DNA of 64,000 nt, taken from IMG/VR virus record IMGVR_UViG_3300022902_000007. The stretch is one strand, 5' to 3'. This stretch comes from a virus. Positions within the stretch are counted from its first letter, which is position 1. Each line of letters starts with the position of its first letter. Below the pieces are notes generated by a model that worked only from the letters and a program-made list of their open reading frames with translations, did not search any database and was not told where the DNA came from. Made by a program: the position numbers and the translations under genes. Positions 2,039-25,568 of this stretch are shown here, piece after piece.

Positions 2039-2225
2039 TTTCTGGGAATTGCAGTGTTCCTTCTCTCAGTCCAAACTCAGTGAATCTCTTCCACTGTTGT
2101 CTGGATTCTCTTTCGTCTTCTCCAGACCATAGAGTCTCCCAGCCTCCTTGATTCCATCTTCTTACTTCGTACATTGTTTTGGCCTTACAGATAATACACA
2201 TAGACTGTGCGATGTGGAAAGGCAT
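1971..2225 (-). CDS. hypothetical protein (true start probably MYEVRR near 2174)
   Basis: ORF in tightly packed minus-strand run. Confidence 0.45.
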   Translation of the reverse strand: MPFHIAQSMCIICKAKTMYEVRRWNQGGWETLWSGEDERESRQQWKRFTEFGLREGTLQFPENGTYRRTLYERVLDRRHIWGMD

Positions 2226-2631
2226 CTTCGATAATCGCTTTCACAATTGTCCAAGAACCGCCAGCATTGTAACAGCCCATCTTGGGCATGCCTACCTTGA
2301 GCGATGAGTTTCTCTCGTTGAGTCGAAGAGAGATTGCCTTGAGACCGTCAGACAGAGCGTCATAGTTTGTATATCGACGGTCTCGTCCATATCTATGTTG
2401 TGCATATAGATTGACTACCCATTTGCTGTCAGCAACATTTGCAACAGTGAATGTGCCGAGTTTGCCTTCGTCACCTTTTTTGGACTTCTTGTCTGCTTCA
2501 AAAACTTTTGGCCATCTTTTTCTGAGAGCCAGTGCGATACCAGCTCCCATTGTGTGGAAGCAGTTCGCTTGGTGAATCAAGATATTGCAATCTGATTCAA
2601 GTAGGTCACCTCGAATCATTTCAATTGGCAT
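2185..2631 (-). CDS. macro domain (Appr-1''-p processing, Poa1p-like) protein
   Basis: GDLL..ILIHQANCFHTMGAGIA, VVNLYAQ and MPKMGCYNAGGSW are typical macro-domain motifs. Confidence 0.9.
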   Translation of the reverse strand: MPIEMIRGDLLESDCNILIHQANCFHTMGAGIALALRKRWPKVFEADKKSKKGDEGKLGTFTVANVADSKWVVNLYAQHRYGRDRRYTNYDALSDGLKAISLRLNERNSSLKVGMPKMGCYNAGGSWTIVKAIIEDAFPHRTVYVYYL

Positions 2632-3202
2632 TTCTTATCCATCCAGAAGTCTTAGTGACTGGGTTGATGTGGTAGATGTGTTCTTTCTTCAGATTGTTGA
2701 ACATGGCTCCAGGAATCTTTGACTTGCCAGTTCTGGCACAGCTCAGATAGTTGTAAGTACCACCTTTCTTCTTGCCATTCCAACAGATGATGGACACCGA
2801 GGAGTCTTCCAACATCCATTCGTTTCTCCATTCCATCATTTTGTAATAGTAGGAGAGGTTCTTGGCCGCCGACGGGAGAGGTCTTTCCCAAGTCTTGACA
2901 AGAGTCCTGGAACAGCGAATTACGTTTTCATGGTCTTGTATAGCTTGAGGAAGCCATCTGTAAGTCTGGTTGGGAATAGGCTGGTAAGCAAGTACTGGGA
3001 TACTGAGTCTGATGGCCTCGTCCATAGCCCACAAATCGAAGCCAAGGGCAAGACCGCCAATGATTTCTACATCAGGATACTTGTCTTTTGCTCTGTTCAG
3101 AGCTTCTCGTACCTGCTTGCGAATCCAGTTTTGTGGACCAAAACGCTGGTATCCGCCCATACCTTCACCTTGTGGCCTATGACCAGAAAGGGAGATCTTC
3201 AT
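2621..3202 (-). CDS. SLOG superfamily protein (YspA/DUF1273-like)
   Basis: SLSGHRP, GGLALGFD, RNEWMLE and W-x-G-x-x-x-GGT motifs. Confidence 0.8.
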   Translation of the reverse strand: MKISLSGHRPQGEGMGGYQRFGPQNWIRKQVREALNRAKDKYPDVEIIGGLALGFDLWAMDEAIRLSIPVLAYQPIPNQTYRWLPQAIQDHENVIRCSRTLVKTWERPLPSAAKNLSYYYKMMEWRNEWMLEDSSVSIICWNGKKKGGTYNYLSCARTGKSKIPGAMFNNLKKEHIYHINPVTKTSGWIRNAN

Positions 3203-3332: not shown

Positions 3333-3728
3333 TCACTCACAGACTATACTCGCCCACTCGATTGCTTCTGGAGTCCAGTCGTTCTTGGGTAGACAGTATG
3401 CTGAATTGTTCTTGAAGTAGCAGAGATAGTCGAGGTCACAGTCTACACAACGAGTGATTGCTCTTGAGTTTAGAGATTCACATCTGTTATCAGGGGGCTT
3501 GTCGTGTTTCGCCGCGATTGCCTGCTTGATTCTGATTTGTTGTCGCTTCACTTCCCAGGACTGTGCTTCTTTACGGGCCTCTTCTCGAAGTTGCATGAGC
3601 TCAGCATTCTTCTGAGCAGCAAGATCCAGAGCAGTGGGCTCTGGGATGGACAAGATTCCGATGAAGATACCTACAGTAGCTGTTGGCAGTAGGATGGCTA
3701 CGAGAAGAAGCTTGTATCGTTCTTTCAT
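3333..3728 (-). CDS. membrane-anchored hypothetical protein
   Basis: N-terminal hydrophobic helix, Cys-rich C-terminus. Confidence 0.6.
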   Translation of the reverse strand: MKERYKLLLVAILLPTATVGIFIGILSIPEPTALDLAAQKNAELMQLREEARKEAQSWEVKRQQIRIKQAIAAKHDKPPDNRCESLNSRAITRCVDCDLDYLCYFKNNSAYCLPKNDWTPEAIEWASIVCE

Positions 3729-3940
3729 TCTACTTCTTCCATGTTGTTTCTGTTGCTCCAGTTATAGACTCGTAGTGTATGACACTTTGGACATGCTTCC
3801 AGGTCTACTTCGGTTTTGTCATCATGGTAGTTGTCTTCATGCTTGAAGAACAGTCCAGAGACTTTGTAGAAGTGGTCGTACTGATAGCTTTTCTTTTCTT
3901 CATCGTCGATGAAGCCACAAGTTTTGCATTGGGTTTTCAT
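3725..3940 (-). CDS. small zinc-ribbon protein
   Basis: CKTC ... CPKC pairs. Confidence 0.6.
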   Translation of the reverse strand: MKTQCKTCGFIDDEEKKSYQYDHFYKVSGLFFKHEDNYHDDKTEVDLEACPKCHTLRVYNWSNRNNMEEVE

Positions 3941-3943
3941 TTG

Positions 3944-4411
3944 TTATCTCTTGTTCAGAATCTCAATTGCTTGTTGTACTTCTCTGTCAGTGATACCAGT
4001 ACGATAGTCAGTCTGTACAAAGGAACTCAGGTCAGAGAGGTCGAGGTCGTCAATTGCGACCCAGTGAGTGAATGGCCAGCTATTGTCTTTGAGCCATCGG
4101 CGAATTTCTTGACAGCGCTCCTGTTCGAGAGTGGGCGTTTCTTGAATAACTATAGATCTCCACTCTATTCCTGGTGTGTATCCAATGATTTCACCGATGC
4201 AGTCGTAGGATTCAAGCAAGTCTTGGAGCTGGGCAATGGTGCACCCATGTCTCCAATCACTGCTGATTACGAGCTTTGCACCAGTTGCACGGATAATGTC
4301 ATTTACCTTGTTGACCATTGCGGGCCAAAACCAAATTCTTGGAATTTCAAGGCCTGTAGGCTGAGAACCGGAGTTGATTACTCCGTCGAAATCAAGGAAG
4401 ATGCCTTTCAT
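3944..4411 (-). CDS. HAD-family phosphatase (Swiss-Army-knife RNA-repair type HAD)
   Basis: FLDFDGVI, LVISSDWR, RCQEI, VAIDD and TGIT motifs. Confidence 0.85.
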   Translation of the reverse strand: MKGIFLDFDGVINSGSQPTGLEIPRIWFWPAMVNKVNDIIRATGAKLVISSDWRHGCTIAQLQDLLESYDCIGEIIGYTPGIEWRSIVIQETPTLEQERCQEIRRWLKDNSWPFTHWVAIDDLDLSDLSSFVQTDYRTGITDREVQQAIEILNKR

Positions 4412-4791: not shown

Positions 4792-5352
4792 TCAGAAGGG
4801 TCTTAGGAGCCTGACGCCATAGCCTTCTCTTTTGTGAAATGACATCTCACGGAATTCGTATGGAGTCATGTCGCTTGGCAGCTCAATGTATGCTCCAATG
4901 CTAATGTTGTATTCTCCTTCGTAGGCAGTTAGCAGCTTGGCAATTTCTTTGAGAAGCAGCTGTTCTGGTGTCTGGATACGAAGGAGATACTCTTCTTCGG
5001 TGAAGCGCTCATTGTCGAGATACCACTCTTTTGTGCCATCGGAGTAGACGACTGCAGGGCCATCTGTGCGGTGGGGTTTACCGTTTAGGTACCAAGCTTG
5101 GCCACCATCAGAATCGATGACTGCTGGTCCATCTGTGCGGTGACGCTTGCCGTCTTGGTACCAGGCTTGGTAGCCACTGGAATAGATGACTGCAGGTCCG
5201 TCTGTACGGTGAAGTTTACCGTTTAGGTACCATACTTGGTAGCCGTCGGGATGGATGACTGCAGGTCCGTCTGTACGGTGTCGTTTACCGTTGAAGTACC
5301 ACTCAATGGTTCCATTTTCGTAGGTTCTGACTTCTTGGGTTTTGTGGTTCAT
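4792..5352 (-). CDS. HRxDGPA 22-aa repeat protein, 4 repeats plus unique C-terminus
   Basis: Near-identical N-terminus MNHKTQEVRTYENG, four HRTDGPA units. Confidence 0.9.
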   Translation of the reverse strand: MNHKTQEVRTYENGTIEWYFNGKRHRTDGPAVIHPDGYQVWYLNGKLHRTDGPAVIYSSGYQAWYQDGKRHRTDGPAVIDSDGGQAWYLNGKPHRTDGPAVVYSDGTKEWYLDNERFTEEEYLLRIQTPEQLLLKEIAKLLTAYEGEYNISIGAYIELPSDMTPYEFREMSFHKREGYGVRLLRPF

Positions 5353-5355
5353 TGT

Positions 5356-5610
5356 TTACCCCAAGAATTCGTCTTCGCTACTCAGAGATTCGCTGTGGAT
5401 GATGAACTCACCGTCGATGCGAATTACTTCTGGATTGCGTGAAGGGATAGCCTCAATGATTCCCGTAGAGAGTACACAAATGCTGCAGTCACCCTGATAG
5501 GCGACCTTCATCAAGACTGGAGTATCTCTGTCAGTTGGGTATCGGAAGACTTCTCCGATATCGAGGTCACTGAAATGGATGACTTTCTTTCTGCCATGAG
5601 AGATTTTCAT
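5356..5610 (-). CDS. hypothetical protein
   Basis: AGAGGA upstream of ATG; abuts next gene. Confidence 0.6.
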   Translation of the reverse strand: MKISHGRKKVIHFSDLDIGEVFRYPTDRDTPVLMKVAYQGDCSICVLSTGIIEAIPSRNPEVIRIDGEFIIHSESLSSEDEFLG

Positions 5611-5868
5611 TGTTCCTCTCTATTTGTTGTACCAGGTGATGTGTGTCCAGTCCGTGGCTTCCTTTGCACGCCGCCTAATGTCGGCGTGCATTTTGTTTCC
5701 AGGAGCCGGCGCCTAAAACTTGTTCCTAAAGGCCTCAGAAACTTTTTCCTCTGCTTTTCAACAGCTATCTATTTCTCTTACCCCAAATTCTCCCATATCT
5801 CACTTACCAATATAAGCGATGTATTGATGAAGAAGGGTACTTTTTTACCCTCCCCTGAGGGTATCTTT

Positions 5869-6207
5869 TTACTCTGGGGTGAGTCGATAGCGATAGCCAT
5901 TGATTTCGAGGATTTGTCCCTTGAGAGGATGGGTTTGGAGTTCTGGGACGGATTGGGTACGACGCTTGTGCTCTGCTTCGGTGAGGAGTTCATCGTTGAG
6001 GAAATAGTACTTTGTACCATCGGAATCAATGACAGCAGGGCCATCTGTGTGGTGGAACTTACCGTTTTGGTACCAAGCTTGGTAGCCATCGGAATTGGTG
6101 ACTGCAGGTCCATCTACCCTGTGCAATTGTCCATTCTCGTAGTGCCTAACTGTCCCATACTCATCCGTAACAATCTTCGTAGTCATGACTTTCTCCTTGT
6201 ATGTCAC
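5869..6207 (-). CDS. HRxDGPA repeat protein, 2 repeats (true start probably MTTKIV near 6186)
   Basis: HRVDGPA and HHTDGPA units; AAGGAG upstream of the internal ATG. Confidence 0.85.
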   Translation of the reverse strand: MTYKEKVMTTKIVTDEYGTVRHYENGQLHRVDGPAVTNSDGYQAWYQNGKFHHTDGPAVIDSDGTKYYFLNDELLTEAEHKRRTQSVPELQTHPLKGQILEINGYRYRLTPE

Positions 6208-6410
6208 TTTGTAGGCCAGCTTTCGCTGGCCTTATGCAGCCTCTGTGGCTATTTCTGATTGTCTTTGCTTATCTTTCCATATGGGAGAAAAGCTTGGGGT
6301 TTTGCTTGTTGAGGGTGACTTATTGCTTGAAATCTTTTATATTGTTTGCCATAATGAGGAATATATACTCTCCCCATGGAGACTCGTGTTAATCTCAGAA
6401 TGAGGCAAAT

Positions 6411-10359: not shown

Positions 10360-10396
10360 CCATTAAAAAAGAAGGAGGCCCCCGAAGGGGCCTCCT
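10360..10396 (-). terminator. cUUCGg terminator-like hairpin with conserved TTCTTTTTTAATGG tail (element copy 1)
   Basis: GGAGGCCCC-TTCG-GGGGCCTCC-TTCTTTTTTAATGG. Confidence 0.8.
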
Positions 10397-10410
10397 CGCT
10401 CAGTCTCTGT

Positions 10411-13400
10411 CTACCTCGTGTGCTTGTTGATGGCAGTACACAAGCGACCGGCACCGTTCATCATTGCCTTGCTCGGCTTGGCCCGAGCACGACGCACTGC
10501 GATGGCACTCACCAGACTCTTGCAGTCCGGGCACTCCAGGAACTGGACACCAGTCTCCTCGTAGTGCTTCATGGGCTCTGGGAGGCTGACACTCGTCCCC
10601 TCGATTCTGCCATAGGGCCCGTACATCAGGCTGCTGAGCACCTCGTGGATGTCCTTGAACACAGGCTTACCGTGCTCGTCGGTCTCCTTGAGGAGCATGT
10701 CTGCCATGCTCTCGACAGCCTTGACTCGTTCAGGAGTCATGTAGTCACACCCAGCGTTGACCTGGATGATTCCCAGCTTGTCGAGGACGGGGGATCCTTC
10801 CCAGGCCACTGCTCGGAAGGCACGCTTGATGTGACGCTCGGACAGCTCCTTGTGGGAGCCATACTCACGACTCAGGCTCATCTCTGTTGACCAGATGGTC
10901 AGCAGCTCTTCCCAGGTGAGGTTCTTGAGGCAGTTCCTCAGCTCGACTCGGCAGGCCTCGATGTCACCGTTCCTCTGGTCAGGTTCGAGAGCAGAGCGCA
11001 TGATGCGTCCCACATTCTCACCATACGTCCTGAGGCCAGACTTCTCGTACAGGCCAGGCTCACCATTGACACCACGCTGGTAGGTAGACTCGGGCAGGGC
11101 CATCCTGGGCTCTTCCTTCAGGCCCGCGTACAACAGCACTTCCAGATTCACCGAGAGCTGCTCCGGCATGTTGTCCTTCTTCCAGTCCTGGAACATACCC
11201 CAAGCTTCCCAGGAGCAGTAGTGCACGAGGTTCTGGTTCTCGCCAGTGTACTCCGTACCTACCCAGCCATTGGGATTGATGCGCTTGGAGCGCTCCTGCC
11301 AGGTGTTGGTGTGCTTCCAGGACATGCCCACTGGCCTGCCCTTGTCGTCAGTACCCACGACGTAGCCCAGCTCAGCAGCGGTCCTCTTGACCCACCAGCT
11401 GAACTTGCCAGGGATGAACCCGCCATACTCATCGACATACCAGCTCTCTGGGCCCATGACCATGGAGCGCTTGGTCGAGCCATCCTCTGCAGTAGAATCG
11501 TACTTCCAGCAGCAGCAGGTCTTGCCATTACGTTCGTACTCTTCCACCACTCTCCAGTTGGCCCCGATCATTGCCTTGTCCATGTTGGTGAACAGTGGGT
11601 TGCGCTTGAGCTGATCGATGAACTCCTGGTTGAGGCACATTGCTGCCATCATTGGCATGGTCTCATCCAGAGCCAGGAACATTGCGCAGGCATTCGTCGC
11701 CATGCCCACTGGTCCCTGTCCGTCCACGGCGATCAGCTTGACTCCATCCCAGCTCTTGGTCGGGATCTTGTCCAGGTGACCGTCCGTGTTCTTCTTGGGC
11801 TCGATGAGGTACACATCTTCAGGCTTGCCCAGCAGCGGGATGCGAGACTCGTAGAACCTGATCATTTCTGGATCCCAGGAGCACGCCACTCCATCACCGT
11901 CGTCGTCACCCATGAGCAGATGCTCCATGTCCATTGGGTTCATGAAGATGGTGTTGGACGGGACGATGTAGTCGGTCCTGCCTTTGATCAGCATGTGGCT
12001 GAAGGCCTCCACGATCTCTGCTTCCATCAAGCAGGCTGGCTGCAGGCCGGGAGCACGGGTGATGGCAAGTCTGTCTCCCACCCTGTACCTCCGCTTGCCA
12101 TTGATCTTCATGGCTGCCATGACGACCTCACCGGGCTCCAGGCTGTTGTCCATCACGACCACGGGAGCCTCGCACATGATGCCTGCACCCTGCTGGATGT
12201 GGTAGAGCTGACGCCCCAGTTCATCCATCAGTTGTTCTGACACCTGAGGTACGGTCTTGGGATCGACACCCAGCTTGTCGCAGATGGCACAGACCATGCC
12301 GAGGTTCTCGTCGCGCTTCATGACGATTTCCATGAGCTCATCCATGGTGAGCTTCTCGAAAGCCTCCTCCACCCTGGTCTTGATGAACGCCTGGTTCTCC
12401 GGGGAGTTCTCAGCGAACTGCAGGGCTTGGAAGTTCAGCTTCTGCTGGCGTGGCTTGGTCCAGGTCTGCATGATGCCCAGATGCAGCTTGATATTGGCCG
12501 TGAGACCGTTGGCATGCAGCTTCTTGGCGTCAGCCTTCCTGGTTCCCTTGATCTGCAGTGGGTCGATCCAGATGGCAGGCTTTCCGCTCTTGTCGACGCA
12601 GCGCTCATCACACACCAGGATGCCCTTCACGAAGACCTCACGGCCCAGGTTGAAGGCTCGGATCTGCACGACGTTCCGCTTGTGACGCGGGATGCCCAGC
12701 GCTTCCCAGATGTCGTGTTCCGGATGGATGCAGCCACAGCCGTCACTGCCAGCAGCCTCTCCCATCCAGTTCTCACGAGTCTTGATGATGCAGTCGTAGT
12801 CATCGATGTGCACCATGGGTCCACACAAACCGCTGACGTAGGCACGGAAGTCTACGGCCACCGGGAAGATGTCGGACAGCACCCTGACGACCTCCTTCTT
12901 GATGGCCCACTTGCCCTTGACCAGGATGTAGCCAGCCTTGTGAACGGGAGACCAGAAGTCAGCCGGGATGTCAGGCTGAGAGCCATCCTCTTCCAGCGGC
13001 AGGTTGTTCTGGAACCGGATCACGGGCAGGTCGTACTTCTTGCCCCAGTAGTGGGTGATGAGACCCACGGGGCCGTTGCTCACCACGTAGCCAGCCTTGA
13101 GACGCTCGGTGTTCCCTTTGGCGGGCTTGTAGATATTCACGATCGGCATGCTCCTCCAGCCCTCTGCCTTGGCCCTGGTACGAGCCACACTCTTCAGGCT
13201 AGTGGTGAGGTCGTCGTATTCCTGCAGCTCATCCTCGGGGCTCTTCCCCAGCATCAGTTCCACGAACAGGTCAGCGTACTCACTGATCTTGGTCTCGACG
13301 GTGACGAGCTTGCTCGCCAGGTACTGGGCAGCCCAGCAGGTGGTGTTGTCCATTTGTGCCTCCTTGGCGTTGTTGGACGGGTTGTCGTTGAGGTAGCTCT

Positions 13401-13674
13401 TGATGTAGATTTCGTTAGGCCTTGGACCCAGAGGGGCCATGCCCATGACTGTCTCGAAGTCGCCATCGCCCCGCAGATGGTAGTAGTAGGACCACTCGTC
13501 ACAGGCTCGACAGTGGACATGACCATCTTCGCAAGCGGTATGCACCAGGAACCCATCTCCGTGGGTCGGGCAGTTTTCACTGTGGTCGATGTCGTTGAGT
13601 TCGCAGCACTTACAGTGGCTTCCCCCATAGGGGTTGCCCATGATGCAGGTGTTGGCAGTGTCGGTGATAGCCAT
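10411..13674 (-). CDS. single-chain two-barrel RNA polymerase, YonO/QDE-1(RdRP)-like
   Basis: Ordered motifs SDGCGCI, VVQIRA..VKGIL, AITRAPGL and MGDDDGD (DxDGD at 11893-11907), matching cellular RdRP and SPbeta YonO patterns. Confidence 0.85.
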   Translation of the reverse strand: MAITDTANTCIMGNPYGGSHCKCCELNDIDHSENCPTHGDGFLVHTACEDGHVHCRACDEWSYYYHLRGDGDFETVMGMAPLGPRPNEIYIKSYLNDNPSNNAKEAQMDNTTCWAAQYLASKLVTVETKISEYADLFVELMLGKSPEDELQEYDDLTTSLKSVARTRAKAEGWRSMPIVNIYKPAKGNTERLKAGYVVSNGPVGLITHYWGKKYDLPVIRFQNNLPLEEDGSQPDIPADFWSPVHKAGYILVKGKWAIKKEVVRVLSDIFPVAVDFRAYVSGLCGPMVHIDDYDCIIKTRENWMGEAAGSDGCGCIHPEHDIWEALGIPRHKRNVVQIRAFNLGREVFVKGILVCDERCVDKSGKPAIWIDPLQIKGTRKADAKKLHANGLTANIKLHLGIMQTWTKPRQQKLNFQALQFAENSPENQAFIKTRVEEAFEKLTMDELMEIVMKRDENLGMVCAICDKLGVDPKTVPQVSEQLMDELGRQLYHIQQGAGIMCEAPVVVMDNSLEPGEVVMAAMKINGKRRYRVGDRLAITRAPGLQPACLMEAEIVEAFSHMLIKGRTDYIVPSNTIFMNPMDMEHLLMGDDDGDGVACSWDPEMIRFYESRIPLLGKPEDVYLIEPKKNTDGHLDKIPTKSWDGVKLIAVDGQGPVGMATNACAMFLALDETMPMMAAMCLNQEFIDQLKRNPLFTNMDKAMIGANWRVVEEYERNGKTCCCWKYDSTAEDGSTKRSMVMGPESWYVDEYGGFIPGKFSWWVKRTAAELGYVVGTDDKGRPVGMSWKHTNTWQERSKRINPNGWVGTEYTGENQNLVHYCSWEAWGMFQDWKKDNMPEQLSVNLEVLLYAGLKEEPRMALPESTYQRGVNGEPGLYEKSGLRTYGENVGRIMRSALEPDQRNGDIEACRVELRNCLKNLTWEELLTIWSTEMSLSREYGSHKELSERHIKRAFRAVAWEGSPVLDKLGIIQVNAGCDYMTPERVKAVESMADMLLKETDEHGKPVFKDIHEVLSSLMYGPYGRIEGTSVSLPEPMKHYEETGVQFLECPDCKSLVSAIAVRRARAKPSKAMMNGAGRLCTAINKHTR

Positions 13675-13735: not shown

Positions 13736-13775
13736 CCATTAAAAAAGAAGGAGCCCGCCCCCGAAGGGGCGGGCT
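13736..13775 (-). terminator. cUUCGg hairpin element copy 2, upstream of RNAP gene
   Basis: AGCCCGCCCC-TTCG-GGGGCGGGCT-CCTTCTTTTTTAATGG. Confidence 0.8.
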
Positions 13776-13789
13776 ATCATGAACACGAG

Positions 13790-15109
13790 CTACTCAGGCA
13801 GCATGTTCACCAGCAGTGCAGCCAGTTGACGCATCTCTGCTGACACGGCCTTGTTGCAGGGTCCTTGGAGTTGATGGATCTTGCCTCTCGTGGCATGGAG
13901 GCTCGCCTTCTCACCATCTGCTCTCCTCAGATGCCAGAGGGTCTCCATCCTCCCATCGTACATGAGATTGTTGATGCAGTTGTTCCAGTAGCCACCGATG
14001 CAATGATGCATCTCTTGGCCTTCCTCCCAGCTCCGAAGTTCTGAGCCGATGAGCTCACATCCTTCAGGCCACTGCATCTGCTTCATGGCTTCGATCTTGG
14101 CTTCATACTTGGTCCGAGCTTCTGCCAGTTTCTTGTTTCTGTTGTCTGCGATCTCTTTGTACCGCTGTTGTCGGATCTCTACGACTCTGTTGTTCTCTTC
14201 AACCAGTCTGTCATGGATTGCCATGAGCTGAGTCCTGGTGAGTCGTTGCTGTGTCCACTCTGGCCTCTCACAGAGGCCCCGCCTGCGATGCATCCGGACA
14301 GTGTCTCTGTACTCCTGCAGCAGCCCCTTCCGCCCATAGTACTGGAGATGGGGGTGGCTCCCGACCAAGGCTGGATCACGCGAGACCATCTGGATATAGA
14401 GAGTCAGGCTGTCTTGACTCATGGGCTCTCTGACCCGAAGGCCAATCGCAGCATTCCTTCCATGTGCGCTCATCTTCAACAAGTTGTTCCTGATCTGGGC
14501 AGGAGTGCCAGGCTTGAGGCGGCGAAGGATGGCCTTGTCCTTCAGCCCCTTCACCATCAGCTTGGCGCAATGCTTGCGGCTCCTCCATCCGCTATTCAAG
14601 ACGAGTCTGAGGGTATTGCCAGTGTTTGTAATCCACTGATATGCTGGGTGCCTACCGTTGGCCAGCAGCCAGTCGAGTCCAGCCCGACCCTGGAAGTTGA
14701 GAACGACAATCGCAGACTTGGAGATAATTGTGAACCCTTTCTCCTTCAGCTCCTCCAGGAGCTTCTTGGTCTTGCTGTTCTCCAACGCCTGCTGGTAGAG
14801 CCAGGCGTAGTGCCTGTAGAGGGCTGCGTTGGGGTCTCGCATCACGGCGCCCCAGGACTTGAACCCGAGGGTCTTGGTGACGATATGGATGGGGTTCGTG
14901 ACCTCAGACTCGTCTTGGCGCAGTTCCTGTGCACCGAGGTAGTCGAACATGTCCAAAGGATTCCAGTGCATCTTGTTCTGCATGAAGTGCCAGCGTCCCT
15001 GGTAGTCTCCGTCGAAGATGATCCAGGTCTTCCTGGTCTTGCAGTTGCTGTGGAAGCAGAAGCCTCCACCGTTGGTGCAGATGTCAGAGAGGGTGCGAGT
15101 GAATGACAT
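13790..15109 (-). CDS. PcfJ-like domain protein (start MSFTRT)
   Basis: C-terminal EEGQEMHHCIGGY...QLQGPCNK motif; AGGAGG upstream of 15109. Confidence 0.75.
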   Translation of the reverse strand: MSFTRTLSDICTNGGGFCFHSNCKTRKTWIIFDGDYQGRWHFMQNKMHWNPLDMFDYLGAQELRQDESEVTNPIHIVTKTLGFKSWGAVMRDPNAALYRHYAWLYQQALENSKTKKLLEELKEKGFTIISKSAIVVLNFQGRAGLDWLLANGRHPAYQWITNTGNTLRLVLNSGWRSRKHCAKLMVKGLKDKAILRRLKPGTPAQIRNNLLKMSAHGRNAAIGLRVREPMSQDSLTLYIQMVSRDPALVGSHPHLQYYGRKGLLQEYRDTVRMHRRRGLCERPEWTQQRLTRTQLMAIHDRLVEENNRVVEIRQQRYKEIADNRNKKLAEARTKYEAKIEAMKQMQWPEGCELIGSELRSWEEGQEMHHCIGGYWNNCINNLMYDGRMETLWHLRRADGEKASLHATRGKIHQLQGPCNKAVSAEMRQLAALLVNMLPE

Positions 15110-15147
15110 GATAGTACCTCCTACATGTCTTGTGTATGGCAGTATTG

Positions 15148-15184
15148 CCACTAAAAAAGAAGGCGGGGCCCCGAAGGGCCCCTC
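15148..15184 (-). terminator. cUUCGg hairpin element copy 3
   Basis: GGGGCCC-TTCG-GGGCCCC-GCCTTCTTTTTTAGTGG. Confidence 0.8.
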
Positions 15185-15188
15185 AGTC

Positions 15189-15365
15189 TCAGTCGCTTCT
15201 CTTGGCATGGTATGTCTCATGCCTTCTCATGTCTGTCAGGTATGGCTTCAGCAGTGCCTTCATGGAGCGCTGCTTCCACCTTGTCCCACAGACTTCACAC
15301 TCGTAGTACAGCCACTTCCTGCCAGTCTTCACCAGCTTGAAGTGACCACTACACCCGCAGGTCAT
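15189..15365 (-). CDS. small zinc-ribbon protein (58 aa, not in ORF track)
   Basis: Manual translation MTCGCSGHFK...YECEVCGTRW...; ATGA overlap with the upstream gene. Confidence 0.6.
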   Translation of the reverse strand: MTCGCSGHFKLVKTGRKWLYYECEVCGTRWKQRSMKALLKPYLTDMRRHETYHAKRSD

Positions 15366-15706
15366 GACTGCCAGACTTCTAGGATCTCATCGATCTCTTC
15401 CTGACTGAGGCCTTGCTCTTCGCAGTAGATCTGAACCAAATCGGTAGCCAGTCTGAAGTCGAGGAAGAAGTAGTCATCTGACATGTGCGCATATTGCTCA
15501 ACCTCGTAGGTTTCGCAATAGGTTCCGTCAGGCCACACGAACAGTCCGTCGTTTGTAGGCTCCGGCGTGTAGGCTTCTTTGACGAAGATCTCCTTGGCCC
15601 TCTCGTACCACTTGTGACACAGGTGACTGAACCACGTGCCGAGGCTGACACCGAGGAGGGCACCGAAGATGCCGAGGATGATCGCGATGATGATGGGAAG
15701 GTCCAT
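15362..15706 (-). CDS. membrane-anchored hypothetical protein
   Basis: AAGGAG upstream; N-terminal TM helix. Confidence 0.7.
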   Translation of the reverse strand: MDLPIIIAIILGIFGALLGVSLGTWFSHLCHKWYERAKEIFVKEAYTPEPTNDGLFVWPDGTYCETYEVEQYAHMSDDYFFLDFRLATDLVQIYCEEQGLSQEEIDEILEVWQS

Positions 15707-15735
15707 CTTGTTTCTCCTTGTATGGACGGAAGTGT

Positions 15736-15773
15736 CCGCTAAAAAAGAAGAAGCGGGCCCCGAAGGGCCCGCT
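15736..15773 (-). terminator. cUUCGg hairpin element copy 4
   Basis: AGCGGGCCC-TTCG-GGGCCCGCT-TCTTCTTTTTTAGCGG. Confidence 0.8.
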
Positions 15774-15788
15774 CAACTCTCTGTCGCT

Positions 15789-16445
15789 CTACGCAGCCAG
15801 ACGTGCCTTCCGCCTGATCTGGACCACGGTCTTACCATGATGCCAGTTGTCGCTGCCGAAGATCGAGGCCCTCAGTCCGAAGTCCTCCACCATCTGCATC
15901 ACGACTTGCTTGTCACTCTGCTGCAGGAGCTGGCTGACGAAGCACCTGACAGGATCTGCCTTGATCTGGTTCTTCAGAGTCCGGGCGAGATCCATGGCCT
16001 TCTCGTACTTGCCATACTTGTCCTGCTGCGCAGCACAGTTGACGTTCTCATCCAGCTCGTGGTGCTGGCCAGTGAACAGGACGGACTTCTTGACCCAGTT
16101 GCCAGTTCCCATGGCCTGGTCGAGTTCTTCCTGACTGACGTTGTCGTACCAGAAGCTGTCATCCATGGCGTGGTCTGGAACTTCTTCCATGCTGTACACG
16201 TACAGTGGCTGGTCGTAGTCTTCCATGCCCTCCAGGTCCATGTCCATAACGAGGCCCAGCATGTCTTCCGAGATGCTCTCACTCGTGGTGCTGACGTTGG
16301 GCTCGAAGTGGAAGCGTACTTGCCGTGGCTGGACGCAGTTGGTGAGGAAGCCCACCAGGAAGGGCATGCTGATCATGCTGATGATGGCGAAGTAGATGGC
16401 GAAGACGCCACCGTTGAAGGTATTGGCGAGGGTGATGTAGTCCAT
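15789..16445 (-). CDS. membrane-anchored acidic hypothetical protein
   Basis: AGGAGG upstream; N-terminal TM helix. Confidence 0.7.
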   Translation of the reverse strand: MDYITLANTFNGGVFAIYFAIISMISMPFLVGFLTNCVQPRQVRFHFEPNVSTTSESISEDMLGLVMDMDLEGMEDYDQPLYVYSMEEVPDHAMDDSFWYDNVSQEELDQAMGTGNWVKKSVLFTGQHHELDENVNCAAQQDKYGKYEKAMDLARTLKNQIKADPVRCFVSQLLQQSDKQVVMQMVEDFGLRASIFGSDNWHHGKTVVQIRRKARLAA

Positions 16446-16479
16446 GATTCCTCCTGTGGATTTGGACTGTTGGTGTCGT

Positions 16480-17168
16480 AGCTGTCTCTCTGCTGTGGGT
16501 GCTGCACCTATCCCAGCTTGGTCTCTCCTGCGGTTTGATCCACTGGATAACCGGGTGCTTCTGTAGTATGAAAGAGCGGTATGTTTAGGCTCGTCCTCAC
16601 GAGTGCTCTATATAGCCGCTATGCCATAGAGCCGAACGCTCCCCATGGAGCAACCCTTCGATTCCGGGCCAGAACCCTGGTAGCCCCAGGTGGCAGCTCC
16701 TGTCCTGTGGAGCCAAGGTCTAAGTGTTGGTTACTACCCGTTCACACACGGGGTCACATGGAGTGATGGTGTCTACTGTTCTCCTACTCGCTCTCACTCA
16801 GAGCCAGCCTGTATTGCTACTCTTGGACACAGACGTCCTCACTTGGGTCTTGCCAAGACAACGTACCTACTACACGGCCCTTTTCTGATAGCAAGCCATC
16901 AGGCCCTTACTGCAGGCGGGCCTACAGACCATGGTTGGGTACAGCACTACCTCTCTACCTATCCCTGGTAGACTCAGGGGATAGAGTGTATTGGCCTTAC
17001 CATCAGCCAATACATGGGGGTTGGACCCACGATAGTCCCTGCACATACGAGTATATGCAGAGGTATGCTCACCACTATGGGCTTGCATACGCATACAGGT
17101 CAGTTTCGTGTCATGACCAGGACTGCGAGGGCTTTCGCTGTGTCATACCATGTGGTATGTGTTGCCAC
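16480..17168 (-). ncRNA. candidate large structured non-coding RNA (~700 nt)
   Basis: No credible ORF; many stem-loops; GNRA loops (GAAA, GCAA) read on the minus strand; boundaries approximate. Confidence 0.55.
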
Positions 17169-17205
17169 TAAATAAAAAGGAGAACCCCTCCGAAGAGGGG
17201 TTCTC
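17165..17205 (-). terminator. cUUCGg hairpin element copy 5
   Basis: GAGAACCCCTC-TTCG-GAGGGGTTCTC-CTTTTTATTTAGTGG. Confidence 0.8.
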
Positions 17206-17212
17206 GGTAGTC

Positions 17213-17335
17213 TCAATGACTGTGATTGATGTGGACAGAGGAATGAGGCTTGGCAACCTTCTTGCCACTACGCTTGGCCTTCTTGCGAAGACGCTTGGCG
17301 ATGGTCCACTGTCTGGTCTTCTGCTTGCGCTTCAT
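17213..17335 (-). CDS. 40-aa highly basic peptide, first gene of the left arm (not in ORF track)
   Basis: AAAGGAG upstream; MKRKQKTRQWTIAKRLRKKAKRSGKKVAKPHSSVHINHSH. Confidence 0.65.
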   Translation of the reverse strand: MKRKQKTRQWTIAKRLRKKAKRSGKKVAKPHSSVHINHSH

Positions 17336-17550
17336 GACTTCTCCTTTTGTGGGGGTGGGCACCGAACGGCAGGGTATCCACCATTTCTACCCAATCAATA
17401 CCAGGTCTACATCCTCTATTTTTCATTCTCGTCCAGTCTTCTCTTCCTTGTTTTCCATATACATATATACCTTTTCCATCTCCTCTCTCTTTTCTATCTT
17501 GTTTCTCTCCCCAAAAATATATTTTTCCTAAATCCGTCCCTATATGGGTT

Positions 17551-17564
17551 TTTTGCTATAATAC
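17551..17564 (+). promoter_or_regulatory. extended -10 type promoter (TGnTATAAT) heading the morphogenesis arm
   Basis: TTTTGCTATAATAC; near-copy TTTTGCTACAATAC at 43172-43185. Confidence 0.55.
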
Positions 17565-17582
17565 CCTTGCCCTTTTCCAAAA

Positions 17583-17864
17583 ATGTTTTTGCAATGGAGT
17601 TTTCTCTTGAATTCGGAAGAACTTTACTCGTTTTCTCTTGATTTCAACGAATTTGTAAAATCTTCTAGACAATTGGACGCATTCCATTGGTATAGATACA
17701 AATATTTCGTTGACAACTCGAACTTTGACGACCCAAAGAAAGAATGTAGATACGTCATCAAGACGAAGCAACTCGGTGAAGATCAGAAGTCGCAGTTGAA
17801 GCAAGAGTTGAAAACATGCAAGGATCTACTGGAATCACTGTTGGAGAGGATAGAAGATGAGTAG
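17583..17864 (+). CDS. hypothetical protein
   Basis: ORF overlapping the next start; start codon uncertain. Confidence 0.5.
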   Translation: MFLQWSFLLNSEELYSFSLDFNEFVKSSRQLDAFHWYRYKYFVDNSNFDDPKKECRYVIKTKQLGEDQKSQLKQELKTCKDLLESLLERIEDE

Positions 17865-18651
17865 TCGAGAGATGATCCAGCGCGAGAAACTACAAACCCT
17901 CCAGAAGATGGAGAGCCAAGAAGAAGCAATCCAAGAGATTACCAAACTGGAGCCTGAGTATCAGGGCTACCTGGATAGACTGAGTTCGAAACAGCGCCGG
18001 CGAGCACAGTCTTCCATCACTGCCATGCGTACCGGCCTACACTCCATTGCACCCTTGGTATGTGGTGGACCTGGAAGGTGCTTGTTCTTTGACAGATGCC
18101 CGATCCCAGAGGTAGATCCCATCACTGGTGAAGTAGACAACGGTCCTATTGAACACTATCCCATTCATCGCGGCTGCATCATGGAAAAGATGTACATGTC
18201 ACAGAAGGTGGTTGAATATGTTCAACACTTGGACGTGAACCCAAACAACCCCATCGAGATGGCTATTGCAAATGACCTGGCCATCATTGACCTGTATAAG
18301 TACAGGGCTGTAGCCATCCTCTCTTCTGGAGACAAGGACGGACATGGTCAGGACTTCATGCGAATGGACATAGTCGGATTCAACGAAGAGACTGGTGATG
18401 CGGCCTACACCACGAACACCCATCCAGCTCTGGAAGTAATAGAGCAGCTGGAGAAGAGGAGAGAACGCTTGATTGACAAGCTGATGGAGACTAGAAAGGC
18501 CAAGACGGATCTGGCGATAAAACTGGGACAGGGTACGGAGAGCAACGTCCTGTTGGAAGAGATCAAGAAGTTGAGGGATGCGATCGAGGGCGGCGCGAAC
18601 GTAGTGGATGCAGAATACGAGGACATCGAACTATTGGATGGAGCTATCTAA
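17857..18651 (+). CDS. probable terminase small subunit
   Basis: Helical, Cys cluster, HPALEVIEQLEK segment; position at the start of the packaging/head arm (inference). Confidence 0.5.
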   Translation: MSSREMIQREKLQTLQKMESQEEAIQEITKLEPEYQGYLDRLSSKQRRRAQSSITAMRTGLHSIAPLVCGGPGRCLFFDRCPIPEVDPITGEVDNGPIEHYPIHRGCIMEKMYMSQKVVEYVQHLDVNPNNPIEMAIANDLAIIDLYKYRAVAILSSGDKDGHGQDFMRMDIVGFNEETGDAAYTTNTHPALEVIEQLEKRRERLIDKLMETRKAKTDLAIKLGQGTESNVLLEEIKKLRDAIEGGANVVDAEYEDIELLDGAI

Positions 18652-19082
18652 TGATCACGCCTGAAGAAGTATATGAGTTGATGGGATATGAAGACCCTGA
18701 TGCATGGATATACAAGAAGGTCGAAGAAAACTGGGAAGAGATGAAGAAGACATATGTCGATGATGGTAGGGAATATCTGTCCTGTCTTTCGGCCAGGTGC
18801 CTTCTCGAAGAGCTCGCGAGTGGCAGCGGTAGAACCACCCAGATGATAGTGCATGGGCTGTGCGAGGCCTTCAAGGAAGAATACGTCGTAATCATTGGAG
18901 ACCCAGATCATGTCCATCATATCCAGAGCCGAGTCAGAAAGATTGCTTGGAAGATAGCCGAATCCACGGGTCGTTATCTTTTCGTCTGTGTTGCTTCTGA
19001 TGAATCCAGCCTTCCAGGGACGCCCAGCCTTCTTCTCAAAGACCACGCGCTGGAATACCAGGAGCTGTACGGTACAGAATAG
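18651..19082 (+). CDS. hypothetical protein with degenerate P-loop-like SGSGRTT
   Basis: TAATG coupling to the upstream gene. Confidence 0.5.
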   Translation: MITPEEVYELMGYEDPDAWIYKKVEENWEEMKKTYVDDGREYLSCLSARCLLEELASGSGRTTQMIVHGLCEAFKEEYVVIIGDPDHVHHIQSRVRKIAWKIAESTGRYLFVCVASDESSLPGTPSLLLKDHALEYQELYGTE

Positions 19083-23294: not shown

Positions 23295-25568
23295 TTGGCC
23301 TATGTAAACATGAATCCTCACATCGAACGACATCTTACTGATCTCTATGTCACGAACGAGTATGGGATCACTCATCCGAACCCTTTGGCGAAGCCACACC
23401 CAGAGCTGATTGAACACTTCGAACAGGAGTATGGGATCAGGACTGACGTGCACATGACTTGCATTGCCTGTCAGATAAGACAGATGTACAAGTACAAAGA
23501 CTTCGCGAAGAAGGACGAGAAGCCAAAATTCGATGTAACATGTAATTTCATTCCTAAAGGATTGCCTCCTGGGACAGGCAAGAAGATAAGGCAGATCGCA
23601 GCCAAGAATGCGATAGACATCAAGCATGCAAGAAGGGTCGTATTGTCTACGATTGATCCTGTAGCTTGGAGTGAGCTCATGCTGGGCTTTGATGACGATG
23701 ACCCAGAATGGTTCCTGAGAAGCTATCAGAAAGAGCTGATCAGGTGTACTGGCAAGAGAGTCAGCATGGTGTGGGGGCGCCGCTCAGGAAAAAGTTTCGG
23801 GATGGCTATCAAGCTCATCTTTCTGGCTTACAACAAGTTGGTAAAGGCTGGTAGGAACAGTCAGGGAGAGCAGCTATATCGCGGGCCGAAGATTTATGTA
23901 ATCACGCCTTTCCAGTCGCAGCTCACCAACATTTTCAATGATATTGAGTCTTTGATCAAGAAGAACCCGGAACTTGTATCGATGGTCAAGTCAGGACATG
24001 CTGGGAGCCTTTATACCAAGTCCCCCACATACAATTTGGTACTGAGGAATGGAGCAACCATTACAGGCTTTGTCTCCGGTATTGGCGTCAAGAGTGATGG
24101 CTCCGGCGGTGGTACGCTCCGTGGTGGTGGCGCAGACTATGTATATCTGGACGAGATGGACATGATCCCTGAAGAGATCCTCTCCAAGGTAATCATTCCA
24201 ATTCTCCACACCTCCAAAGACGGAAGCATGTATGCTACGTCTACGCCTATTGGCAAGCGAGGGAGATTCTTCCAGTGGACTAATCAGAATCCCAAGTACA
24301 AGTCTGACCACTATCCGTCATCAGTACTTCCACACTGGGAATCGATCAAGGAAGAGGCAAGGGAAGAAGCAGGCACTGAAGAGAACTTCATGGCTGAGTA
24401 CATGGCCATGTTCATCGAGGGTGGCTACGGTGTGTTCAGGCCTTCTCTCATTCATGCTGCAAGAGCAGACTATGAATACGCAGAGACGCAGGCAGAGTCT
24501 TATCCATTCTGGTCCAAGAAGATGGGTATACCAGATTTCAAGAACATGTCGATAATGATTGGGATTGACTGGAACAAGAATGCGGGAACAGAGTTCTATG
24601 TGATTGGGTATTCCCATTCAACGGGCCGGATAGTGGCTTTGGAGTCACACAACATTTCTACTTCTGAATTCTCTGGCAAGAAGTGGATGGAGGAGGTACT
24701 CCGTTTGAATTTCAAATGGAAGCCGTCGTTCATATATGCCGATGAAGGCTGGGGACATCACATCATCGAGGATCTGCAATACCATGCGTCCCAGTTGCGT
24801 GGCAGAAAGAAGCTCAGTGAGTTCGAGAAGCAGTCGATTCAATTACTCGATAGGCTCGTGTCTTTCAACTTCTCCAAGAAGGTAGTCTTGAGAAGCCCGA
24901 TTGACGGTAAGAAGTTCGAGAAGTCTGGGAAGCACTTCCTCGTAGAAAATGCTGTCAGAATTCTGGAGGCTGGAGCTTTCTCCTACCCGGAGAATGATAA
25001 GGTGCTTACTGATCAGTTCACGAACTACGTCATTCTCAGACGACATCCGTCCAACAACAAGCCGGTGTATGGTTGCAACAATGACACTATTGGTGATCAC
25101 AGGCTGGACGCCGTGATGCTGGCTCTCGCTGCTGTATCTTTGGAGTGCTCTGATTTCAGTCCAAGTAATCATGTGAGCTCGTCACTCTCCTTCAAGGCCA
25201 GAGGTGATGCTCCTGGGGACTATGTACACCCTATTCAGGAAGCTCACGATTTAATTGAGTCTGCAAAAAGAGCTGGTGTGCCAGCCATTCTGAATGTCTT
25301 GGCTCTTAGAAGAGGGAACAATCCGCAAGACGAAGAGCACATAAGAAAGAAATGGGCAGAAGAAGAGAAGGAAGAGCCAGTCGGACGCTTCAAACGCTCA
25401 CGAGAACGTGGTAAACTCAGGGGCAGCCAACAAAAGGGTGATAATCTTTTGTATGAAACAATGAGCAGTTCTTCTGGAAGGCCATCTTTCGCGAAGTTTA
25501 GCGGAAGGAAGAGAAGAGTCGGTTCTGGGAGATCCTCTGGCAGAGGTAACATTCGGAGAGTGAGATGA
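23295..25568 (+). CDS. terL: terminase large subunit
   Basis: LRSYQ, GRRSGKS (Walker A), YVYLDE (Walker B), STP and IGIDW nuclease motif. Confidence 0.9.
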   Translation: MAYVNMNPHIERHLTDLYVTNEYGITHPNPLAKPHPELIEHFEQEYGIRTDVHMTCIACQIRQMYKYKDFAKKDEKPKFDVTCNFIPKGLPPGTGKKIRQIAAKNAIDIKHARRVVLSTIDPVAWSELMLGFDDDDPEWFLRSYQKELIRCTGKRVSMVWGRRSGKSFGMAIKLIFLAYNKLVKAGRNSQGEQLYRGPKIYVITPFQSQLTNIFNDIESLIKKNPELVSMVKSGHAGSLYTKSPTYNLVLRNGATITGFVSGIGVKSDGSGGGTLRGGGADYVYLDEMDMIPEEILSKVIIPILHTSKDGSMYATSTPIGKRGRFFQWTNQNPKYKSDHYPSSVLPHWESIKEEAREEAGTEENFMAEYMAMFIEGGYGVFRPSLIHAARADYEYAETQAESYPFWSKKMGIPDFKNMSIMIGIDWNKNAGTEFYVIGYSHSTGRIVALESHNISTSEFSGKKWMEEVLRLNFKWKPSFIYADEGWGHHIIEDLQYHASQLRGRKKLSEFEKQSIQLLDRLVSFNFSKKVVLRSPIDGKKFEKSGKHFLVENAVRILEAGAFSYPENDKVLTDQFTNYVILRRHPSNNKPVYGCNNDTIGDHRLDAVMLALAAVSLECSDFSPSNHVSSSLSFKARGDAPGDYVHPIQEAHDLIESAKRAGVPAILNVLALRRGNNPQDEEHIRKKWAEEEKEEPVGRFKRSRERGKLRGSQQKGDNLLYETMSSSSGRPSFAKFSGRKRRVGSGRSSGRGNIRRVR

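Follow-up and report, generated by a model that had tools for sequence, protein, structure and literature searches.

What lies between two early genes of an uncultured marine phage, where some 0.7 kb of the window (the whole 64-kb stretch of DNA that was analysed) is free of any credible open reading frame? The initial annotation had proposed a large structured non-coding RNA of no known family. Comparison with related phages upholds this proposal, as no Rfam family matches, the counterparts in relatives are non-coding, and their structure is conserved with compensatory changes; on these comparative grounds we conclude that the stretch belongs to a new family of conserved, structured non-coding RNAs, absent from Rfam. 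The proposal needs qualifying in that the window copy is a trimmed form of a 1.0-1.3-kb RNA and has no terminator of its own. We regard it as very probable that the stretch encodes a structured RNA which is functional and belongs to a new family, forming the 5' portion of the second early unit, and we infer that it acts as a folded RNA rather than as a spacer. As to the best explanation overall, we lean, with somewhat better than even confidence, towards a new structured RNA family that is co-transcribed with the gene behind it, whose 218-aa product starts MDY (Table 1), and that may be a partner of this MDY protein.

Place of the stretch and its relatives

There is no ORF of at least 100 aa in 16446-17172, in agreement with the earlier reading. 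The sense-strand ORFs that are present are of 74, 39 and 33 aa, the 74-aa ORF being the longest on that strand, and in independent assemblies of the same phage the gene callers either left the gap empty or called just a 40-aa ORF. It had also been noted that the region begins directly after a repeated element, and it does so: the element consists of the minus-strand terminator at 17180-17205 and the box TTTTTATTTAGTGGCAAC (Table 1).

The same phage is present in 19 marine DNA runs from 16 studies and in one RNA run. Sixteen loci of this phage were retrieved via the 218-aa and RNA polymerase (RNAP) proteins of the window; L016 was left out of the comparison, and the other 15 have 0-1 differences over the region and therefore carry no covariation information. 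A BLAST search with the region against 50,697 GenBank phages gave no match, scans of IMG/VR guided by the 218-aa, PcfJ-like and RNAP proteins yielded no relatives, and none were found in the GTDB genomes scanned with an alignment of the 264-aa protein. The TTTTTATTTAGNGGCAA box was discarded as a lead in IMG/VR, since all of its 58 matches were due to chance and none had a hairpin upstream. A single distant homologue of the 218-aa protein is encoded on L017, an ENA contig of 1.9 kb that ends just past the homologue's gene; the 1054-aa SNase-domain protein has homologues in L076, L077, and L078 (59%, 57%, and 52% identity, respectively), with a long tail of further relatives at 37% identity or less; and the 264-aa protein alignment recovered JGI contigs including L080, L081, and L082. 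Over the region, L082 and L076 share about 88-89% identity; L080 and L081 are near relatives of L077. The protein fragment P0087 is 71% identical to the 264-aa protein of the window, and judging from this identity its source is probably the closest relative of the window.

Five further related marine phage lineages carry an ORF-free stretch of 1.0-1.3 kb in the same place as that of the window. The order common to the lineages is, on the sense strand, a hairpin with a T tract and a TTTAGTGGC-type box, the ORF-free stretch, an RBS, and a small gene, and there are colinear sequence blocks between lineages. The small gene is of the MDY type in L076, L077, and L082, where it encodes a homologue of the 218-aa protein or a protein similar to it, and the adjacency of RNA and MDY gene holds across all lineages. 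Strong terminators bracket the unit of RNA and gene, and none divides it in the window, L076, or L077. At 0.73 kb, the window copy is the shortest known copy of an RNA family that spans 0.7-1.3 kb.

Moreover, the distant relatives L083, L092, and L091, which were identified by 53% identity in the 264-aa protein or by about 36% in the SNase protein, keep an ORF-free stretch of 1.0-1.4 kb at the same place, and its mean local folding z-score on the sense strand (-1.9, -2.8, and -2.4, respectively) is always below that of the antisense strand. None of the covariance models described below reaches L091, L092, or L083, R1 giving no match in L083 even with the filters off; what L091 and L092 have in common with the aligned lineages is just the architecture and good folding. 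Since these distant relatives keep an ORF-free stretch that folds well, the class could extend far beyond the six aligned lineages. As separate observations on these phages, the early arm of L091 (1-6400) contains several large gene-free stretches (4998-6399, 3447-4072, 2193-3016, and 1-1807), and the terminase-like gene of L077 (11562-14942) is enlarged to 1126 aa with Pfam matches to an intein and a LAGLIDADG endonuclease, its counterpart in the window (23295-25568, 757 aa) having no intein insertion.

Table 1. Features of the structured RNA region and of its flanks in the window
Feature	Position	Strand	Basis or remark
Small gene upstream of the RNA	17213-17335	minus	on the same strand as the RNA; closed by the terminator 17180-17205
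Intrinsic terminator of the preceding small early gene	17180-17205	minus	11-bp stem, UUCG loop, U tract
Box TTTTTATTTAGTGGCAAC 3' of the terminator	17161-17178	minus	also behind terminators in relatives
Structured RNA region, no ORF	16446-17172 (727 nt)	minus	5' end inferred from the box; 3' limit is the RBS of the next gene
Conserved motif ACAGCGAAAGCC with GAAA-loop mini-hairpin	17130-17141	minus	sequence comparison
Hairpin GGUCA...UGACC	17098-17118	minus	L017 counterpart at the aligned position is GGUAAUGC...GCAAUACC
Hairpins M2 (17063-17090) and M3 (17040-17059)	17021-17099	minus	model R2, weak but top and colinear
Two perfect hairpins, 9 bp and 7 bp	16959-17014	minus	not aligned to relatives; strongest local folding signal
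Conserved core	16733-16873	minus	model R1, covariation
Core hairpin with CAAGA(A/C) loop	16842-16857	minus	
Core closing helix GUCUGUG/UACAGGC	16828-16834 paired with 16807-16813	minus	
Core hairpin GCUCU-GAGUG-AGAGC	16790-16804	minus	the core also contains CACCA
Core hairpin CCCG...CGGG	16737-16752	minus	
3' module, hairpins 16676-16690, 16653-16669, 16638-16651	16617-16698	minus	model R3
Nested hairpin domain GCUCUAU...AUAGAGC, then CUCGU-GAGG-ACGAG	16590-16632	minus	
218-aa gene, product starts MDY	15789-16445	minus	RBS 16450-16455; next terminator 15751-15774

Non-coding conservation and covarying helices

The short sense-strand ORFs, and the 40-aa ORF called in one assembly, could be taken to mean that the stretch is a decayed gene or holds unannotated small ORFs. 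This is most improbable. In the relatives, mismatches show no periodicity by codon position (44/43/41, p 0.95, and 135/147/125) and indels break the frame, their lengths of 1, 2, 4, 7, 20, 28, etc. not being multiples of three, whereas a coding control gave 114/27/14 mismatches per codon position (p 1e-25), with all of its indels 3 or 6 long. When L076 is compared with L082, conservation of the stretch exceeds that of the adjoining 264-aa gene (88% vs. 81% identity); between L076 and L077 the values are 60% for the stretch and 70% for the gene. In addition, the structure signal set out below is missing from the coding control. Runs of 20-25 nt, e.g., UUGUUCUGCAAAUGAGGUUCUUUGA, are identical across L076, L082, and L077; they are predicted to be largely unpaired, and on this predicted fold they are candidate binding or tertiary-contact sites.

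Conservation of structure was assessed in two ways. Firstly, RNAalifold was run on an alignment of L076, L082, and L077 against class-preserving column shuffles, which gave z-scores of -3 or lower in 9 of the 14 windows of the stretch, with a minimum of -6.4, compared with +0.6 to -2.0 on the sense strand of a coding-gene control. Secondly, because whole-length MAFFT alignment of all lineages was unreliable, blocks and covariance models were used, and the three models (R1, R2, and R3) were built from relatives only, with the window sequence left out. R1, which represents the core block (187 positions) and was built from L076, L082, L077, and L017, has its sole match in the 64 kb at 16733-16873(-), with 44.7 bits and an E-value of 2.5e-11; elsewhere it matches L078 weakly, at the expected place, and in a control of 477 kb of unrelated viral DNA it scores 6.5 bits at best. 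R2, for the 5'-middle domain, and R3, for the 3' module, were both built from L076, L082, and L077, and both match the window weakly: R2 at 17021-17099(-) (8.4 bits, E 0.05 in 3 kb; the top match with filters off) and R3 at 16617-16698(-) (14.9 bits, E 0.05 in 189 kb and 8e-4 in 3 kb). R2 also matches L017 at 35 bits (E 1e-7), and R3 has no match elsewhere. The three matches in the window occur in the same order as in the relatives. According to the model alignment, two internal sub-domains of the relatives are absent from the window copy, which accounts for its smaller size, and the M4 sub-domain of the relatives is absent from the R2 block at 17021-17099. Comparative support does not extend to the hairpins at 16959-17014 or to the 3'-terminal 170 nt of the window copy, and these hairpins may be lineage-specific peripheral stems.

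Compensatory changes are frequent in the modelled pairs. In the core alignment, 92.3% of the cells are paired and 17 of the 37 pairs have both-sided changes, and in the alignment of the 5' domain the corresponding figures are 93.9% and 21 of 47, all of these being figures for structures that were derived from the same sequences and for alignments that were fitted to the models. Neither result was equalled in 500 shuffles, and slid controls had 27-44% of the cells paired and at most 10 pairs with both-sided changes. The independent covariation events are few, the lineages numbering only five or six. Covariation is plainest in the closing helix of the core, with the sequences GUCUGUG/UACAGGC (window), UCUCGAU/AUCGAGA (L017), UCCUGAA/AUCAGGA (L077), and UUUCAAC/GUUGAGA (L076). 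Since G-U pairs are invariant in helix 1, the RNA strand is the gene-sense strand, that is, the minus strand of the window.

The same pairs bear on the idea that the stretch works at the level of DNA, as a replication origin, a packaging site, or a protein-binding region, and that its hairpins are incidental. The stretch contains no gene and is close to the AT-rich junction from which the two arms diverge, both of which would suit such an element. However, the compensatory changes preserve RNA-type pairs, an invariant G-U pair being an A-C mismatch on the other strand; UUCG and GNRA loops are features of RNA; the stretch contains no iterons or direct repeats; and its GC content, about 54%, is similar to that of coding DNA. 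A DNA-level element is thus very improbable, and we return to the reading of the stretch as a structured RNA.

Folding energy by itself is equivocal, being only partly convincing as proof of structure. For the region as a whole, with 20 shuffles per strand, the MFE z-scores were -1.55 (minus) and +0.18 (plus). Folding beyond that of shuffled controls was found for 16875-17174, where 150-nt windows on the minus strand gave z-scores of -2.3, -4.0, and -2.3, with weaker values on the plus strand, but not for 16425-16949, where they lie between +1.1 and -1.3; about 60% of the window copy is without excess folding energy.

The individual elements listed in the initial annotation are present in the window copy. 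All of the stems were found (17144-17159, 17063-17090, 17040-17059, 16987-17014, 16959-16984, and 16902-16922); the nested domain, which had been placed at about 16574-16641, was located at 16590-16632; and so were the motifs GCGAAAGC (17131-17138), GTAGCAATAC (16811-16820), and GGGTCCAACCC (17018-17028). The conserved motif ACAGCGAAAGCC has the aligned counterparts ACAGAGCGAAAGCC in L017 and GCAGCGGAAGGCC in L082. The motif GTGAGGACG does occur twice, as had been observed (16834-16842 and 16592-16600), and we dismissed its duplication as a signal, as a single repeated 9-mer is roughly what chance would give in about 720 nt (about one pair expected, by our own estimate). The sequence GTA-GCAA-TAC, which had been taken for a GNRA hairpin, is likewise present, but as a hairpin it would compete with the closing helix of the core that is conserved in relatives, and because of this conflict it is probably not the native fold.

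With regard to known families, no Rfam covariance model reached its gathering threshold in the window or in the loci of eight relatives; at relaxed thresholds there was only noise in the window at E-values up to 10 and nothing in the full-size relatives at E-values up to 1. The models for GOLLD, ROOL, OLE, RNase P, tmRNA, 6S RNA, riboswitches, and group I and group II introns gave no match. As the stretch lies outside any gene, it has no flanking exons such as an intron would have.

Transcription of the RNA and its proposed link to the MDY protein

Transcription of the minus strand would start at or just after the terminator and TTTAGTGGC box near 17172, the box TTTTTATTTAGTGGCAAC being the likely start of the RNA unit in the form of a promoter or a processing signal, and the transcript would continue, with no terminator in between, into the gene of the 218-aa MDY membrane protein. 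Because the RNA runs without a terminator into the MDY gene, the two make up one early transcription unit, and since it has no terminator of its own the window RNA counts, formally, as the 5' portion of the next gene's transcript. The window copy retains the conserved core and several modules, peripheral sub-domains having been lost. In a seawater metatranscriptome run, a single 367-nt contig with a depth of 5.2 lies at 16707-17073, and nothing else is covered in 14000-19000; the data are unstranded, and the run itself was found using this sequence. The flanks of 16707-17073 are covered in three DNA runs. One unstranded contig from one run thus hints that the RNA part of the unit accumulates above its neighbours.

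The MDY protein has an N-terminal hydrophobic helix and a basic C-terminal tail. A hydrophobic N-terminal 19-mer (Kyte-Doolittle 1.9-2.6) was found in four of the five MDY homologues scored, and most of them have K/R-rich tails. As the mode of action we tentatively rank first, by analogy, a partnership in which the MDY protein would bind the RNA through its basic tail and anchor it through its membrane helix, like OLE RNA with OapA. The OLE gene typically adjoins a membrane-protein gene, and the product of the latter, OapA, binds OLE RNA (PMC11332333). Both OLE (RF01071, about 600 nt) and the RNA described here (700-1300 nt) are large ornate RNAs, and in both systems the RNA gene is directly beside the gene of a small membrane protein of unknown family. 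However, the OLE model does not match the phage RNA in sequence or structure, Pfam detects no relation between the MDY protein and OapA, so that the likeness is by analogy alone, and OLE belongs to the chromosomes of Gram-positive extremophiles (Firmicutes) whereas the present RNA belongs to a marine phage. It also counts against a partnership that the MDY protein matches nothing in Pfam or PHROG, that its L017 homologue is without the hydrophobic helix, and that the absence of a terminator behind the RNA suits a cis-acting leader equally well.

Such a leader would act by antitermination, as HK022 put or EAR-like RNAs do, or would control the translation or stability of the MDY message. We hold this to be possible though doubtful. 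It accords with the undivided unit of RNA and gene in the window, L076, and L077, with the invariant adjacency to the MDY gene, and with the division of the early arm into cassettes by strong terminators, because of which a control of read-through would be useful. HK022 put RNA and EAR-type leaders are about 70-120 nt long and have two or three stems; like them, the RNA described here is a cis-transcribed structured RNA near the start of a terminator-containing early phage operon, but it is 6-15 times larger and of another architecture, and only its position in a terminator-rich arm is consistent with their mode of action. With 0.7-1.3 kb and at least 15 helices it is far above the cis-regulatory RNAs that are known, which are many times smaller. 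Moreover, no conserved pairing with the RBS (anti-Shine-Dalgarno) was seen on inspecting the alignments, and the contig of the RNA run lies on the RNA and not on the gene behind it, which suggests separate accumulation. An arginine-rich N-like peptide (17213-17335) acting with a boxB-like GAAA hairpin was considered and rejected, as this upstream small gene is not conserved in the relatives, where unrelated small genes are found at that place. Its 40-aa product (minus strand; MKRKQKTRQWTIAKRLRKKAKR...) is extremely basic, with a pI of 12, and resembles the arginine-rich motifs of N-type antiterminators.

The confinement of the metatranscriptome contig to the RNA would also fit a stable RNA that is processed out of the transcript and acts in trans, independently of the MDY protein, be it as a decoy or sponge for a host or defence factor, as an assembly of the GOLLD/ROOL kind, or as a ribozyme. 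The position in the early arm agrees with this, and the size, the gain and loss of modular peripheral hairpins around a core, and the long conserved unpaired stretches resemble ornate RNAs. GOLLD (RF01998) and ROOL (RF03087) are large phage-associated RNAs that form RNA-only cages (10.1101/2024.12.08.627333). The present RNA has in common with them the size class, the carriage by phages, and many helices around conserved junctions; it differs in that it matches neither model, is not beside tRNA genes (those of the window are 8-9 kb away), has no terminator of its own, and always has the same protein gene behind it. As the OLE, RNase P, and intron models do not match either, we consider a trans-acting RNA independent of the MDY protein unlikely, and the partnership with this protein is retained as the first-ranked mode of action.

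Large ornate RNAs of bacteria and phages, such as OLE, GOLLD, ROOL, HEARO, and raiA, are few and their jobs are mostly unknown, and each of them has opened new biology or a new architecture. It is conceivable, if speculative, that the RNA described here represents a new large ornate class across a broad clade of uncultured marine myoviruses, working either as an RNP with the MDY protein or as a ribozyme or RNA-only assembly in early host takeover. Its natural size variants of 0.73-1.3 kb suit structure work, and its constant travel with one small membrane protein provides a concrete candidate for a partner. As an RNA of the early arm, it may bear on the start of infection in phages whose transcription machinery, which includes a YonO-like polymerase, is poorly understood.

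This polymerase is encoded in the window at 10411-13674(-) (YonO/QDE-1-like, Pfam PF05183); in a word-based search of 5.8 billion proteins it found its own 90% cluster only, and the neighbouring SNase-domain protein has dozens of relatives. A hairpin, often with a UUCG loop, followed by a T tract and a box TTTA(G/A)(T/C)GG(C/T) recurs behind nearly every early gene of these phages. Such composites of terminator and box are found on the minus strand of the window at 10365-10408, 13744-13787, 15154-15197, 15743-15786, and 17161-17205, and among the relatives in L076 (eight copies with hairpin in 11 kb), L077, L080-L083, and L017 (1740-1800). They are conserved among lineages with proteins that are just 50-60% identical, and may combine a terminator with a promoter or processing signal for an RNA polymerase of the phage itself. 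Several ORFs on the minus strand of the window, at the distal end of the early arm, contain arrays of a 69-nt (23-codon) repeat (1-1765, 4967-5370, and 6021-6196).
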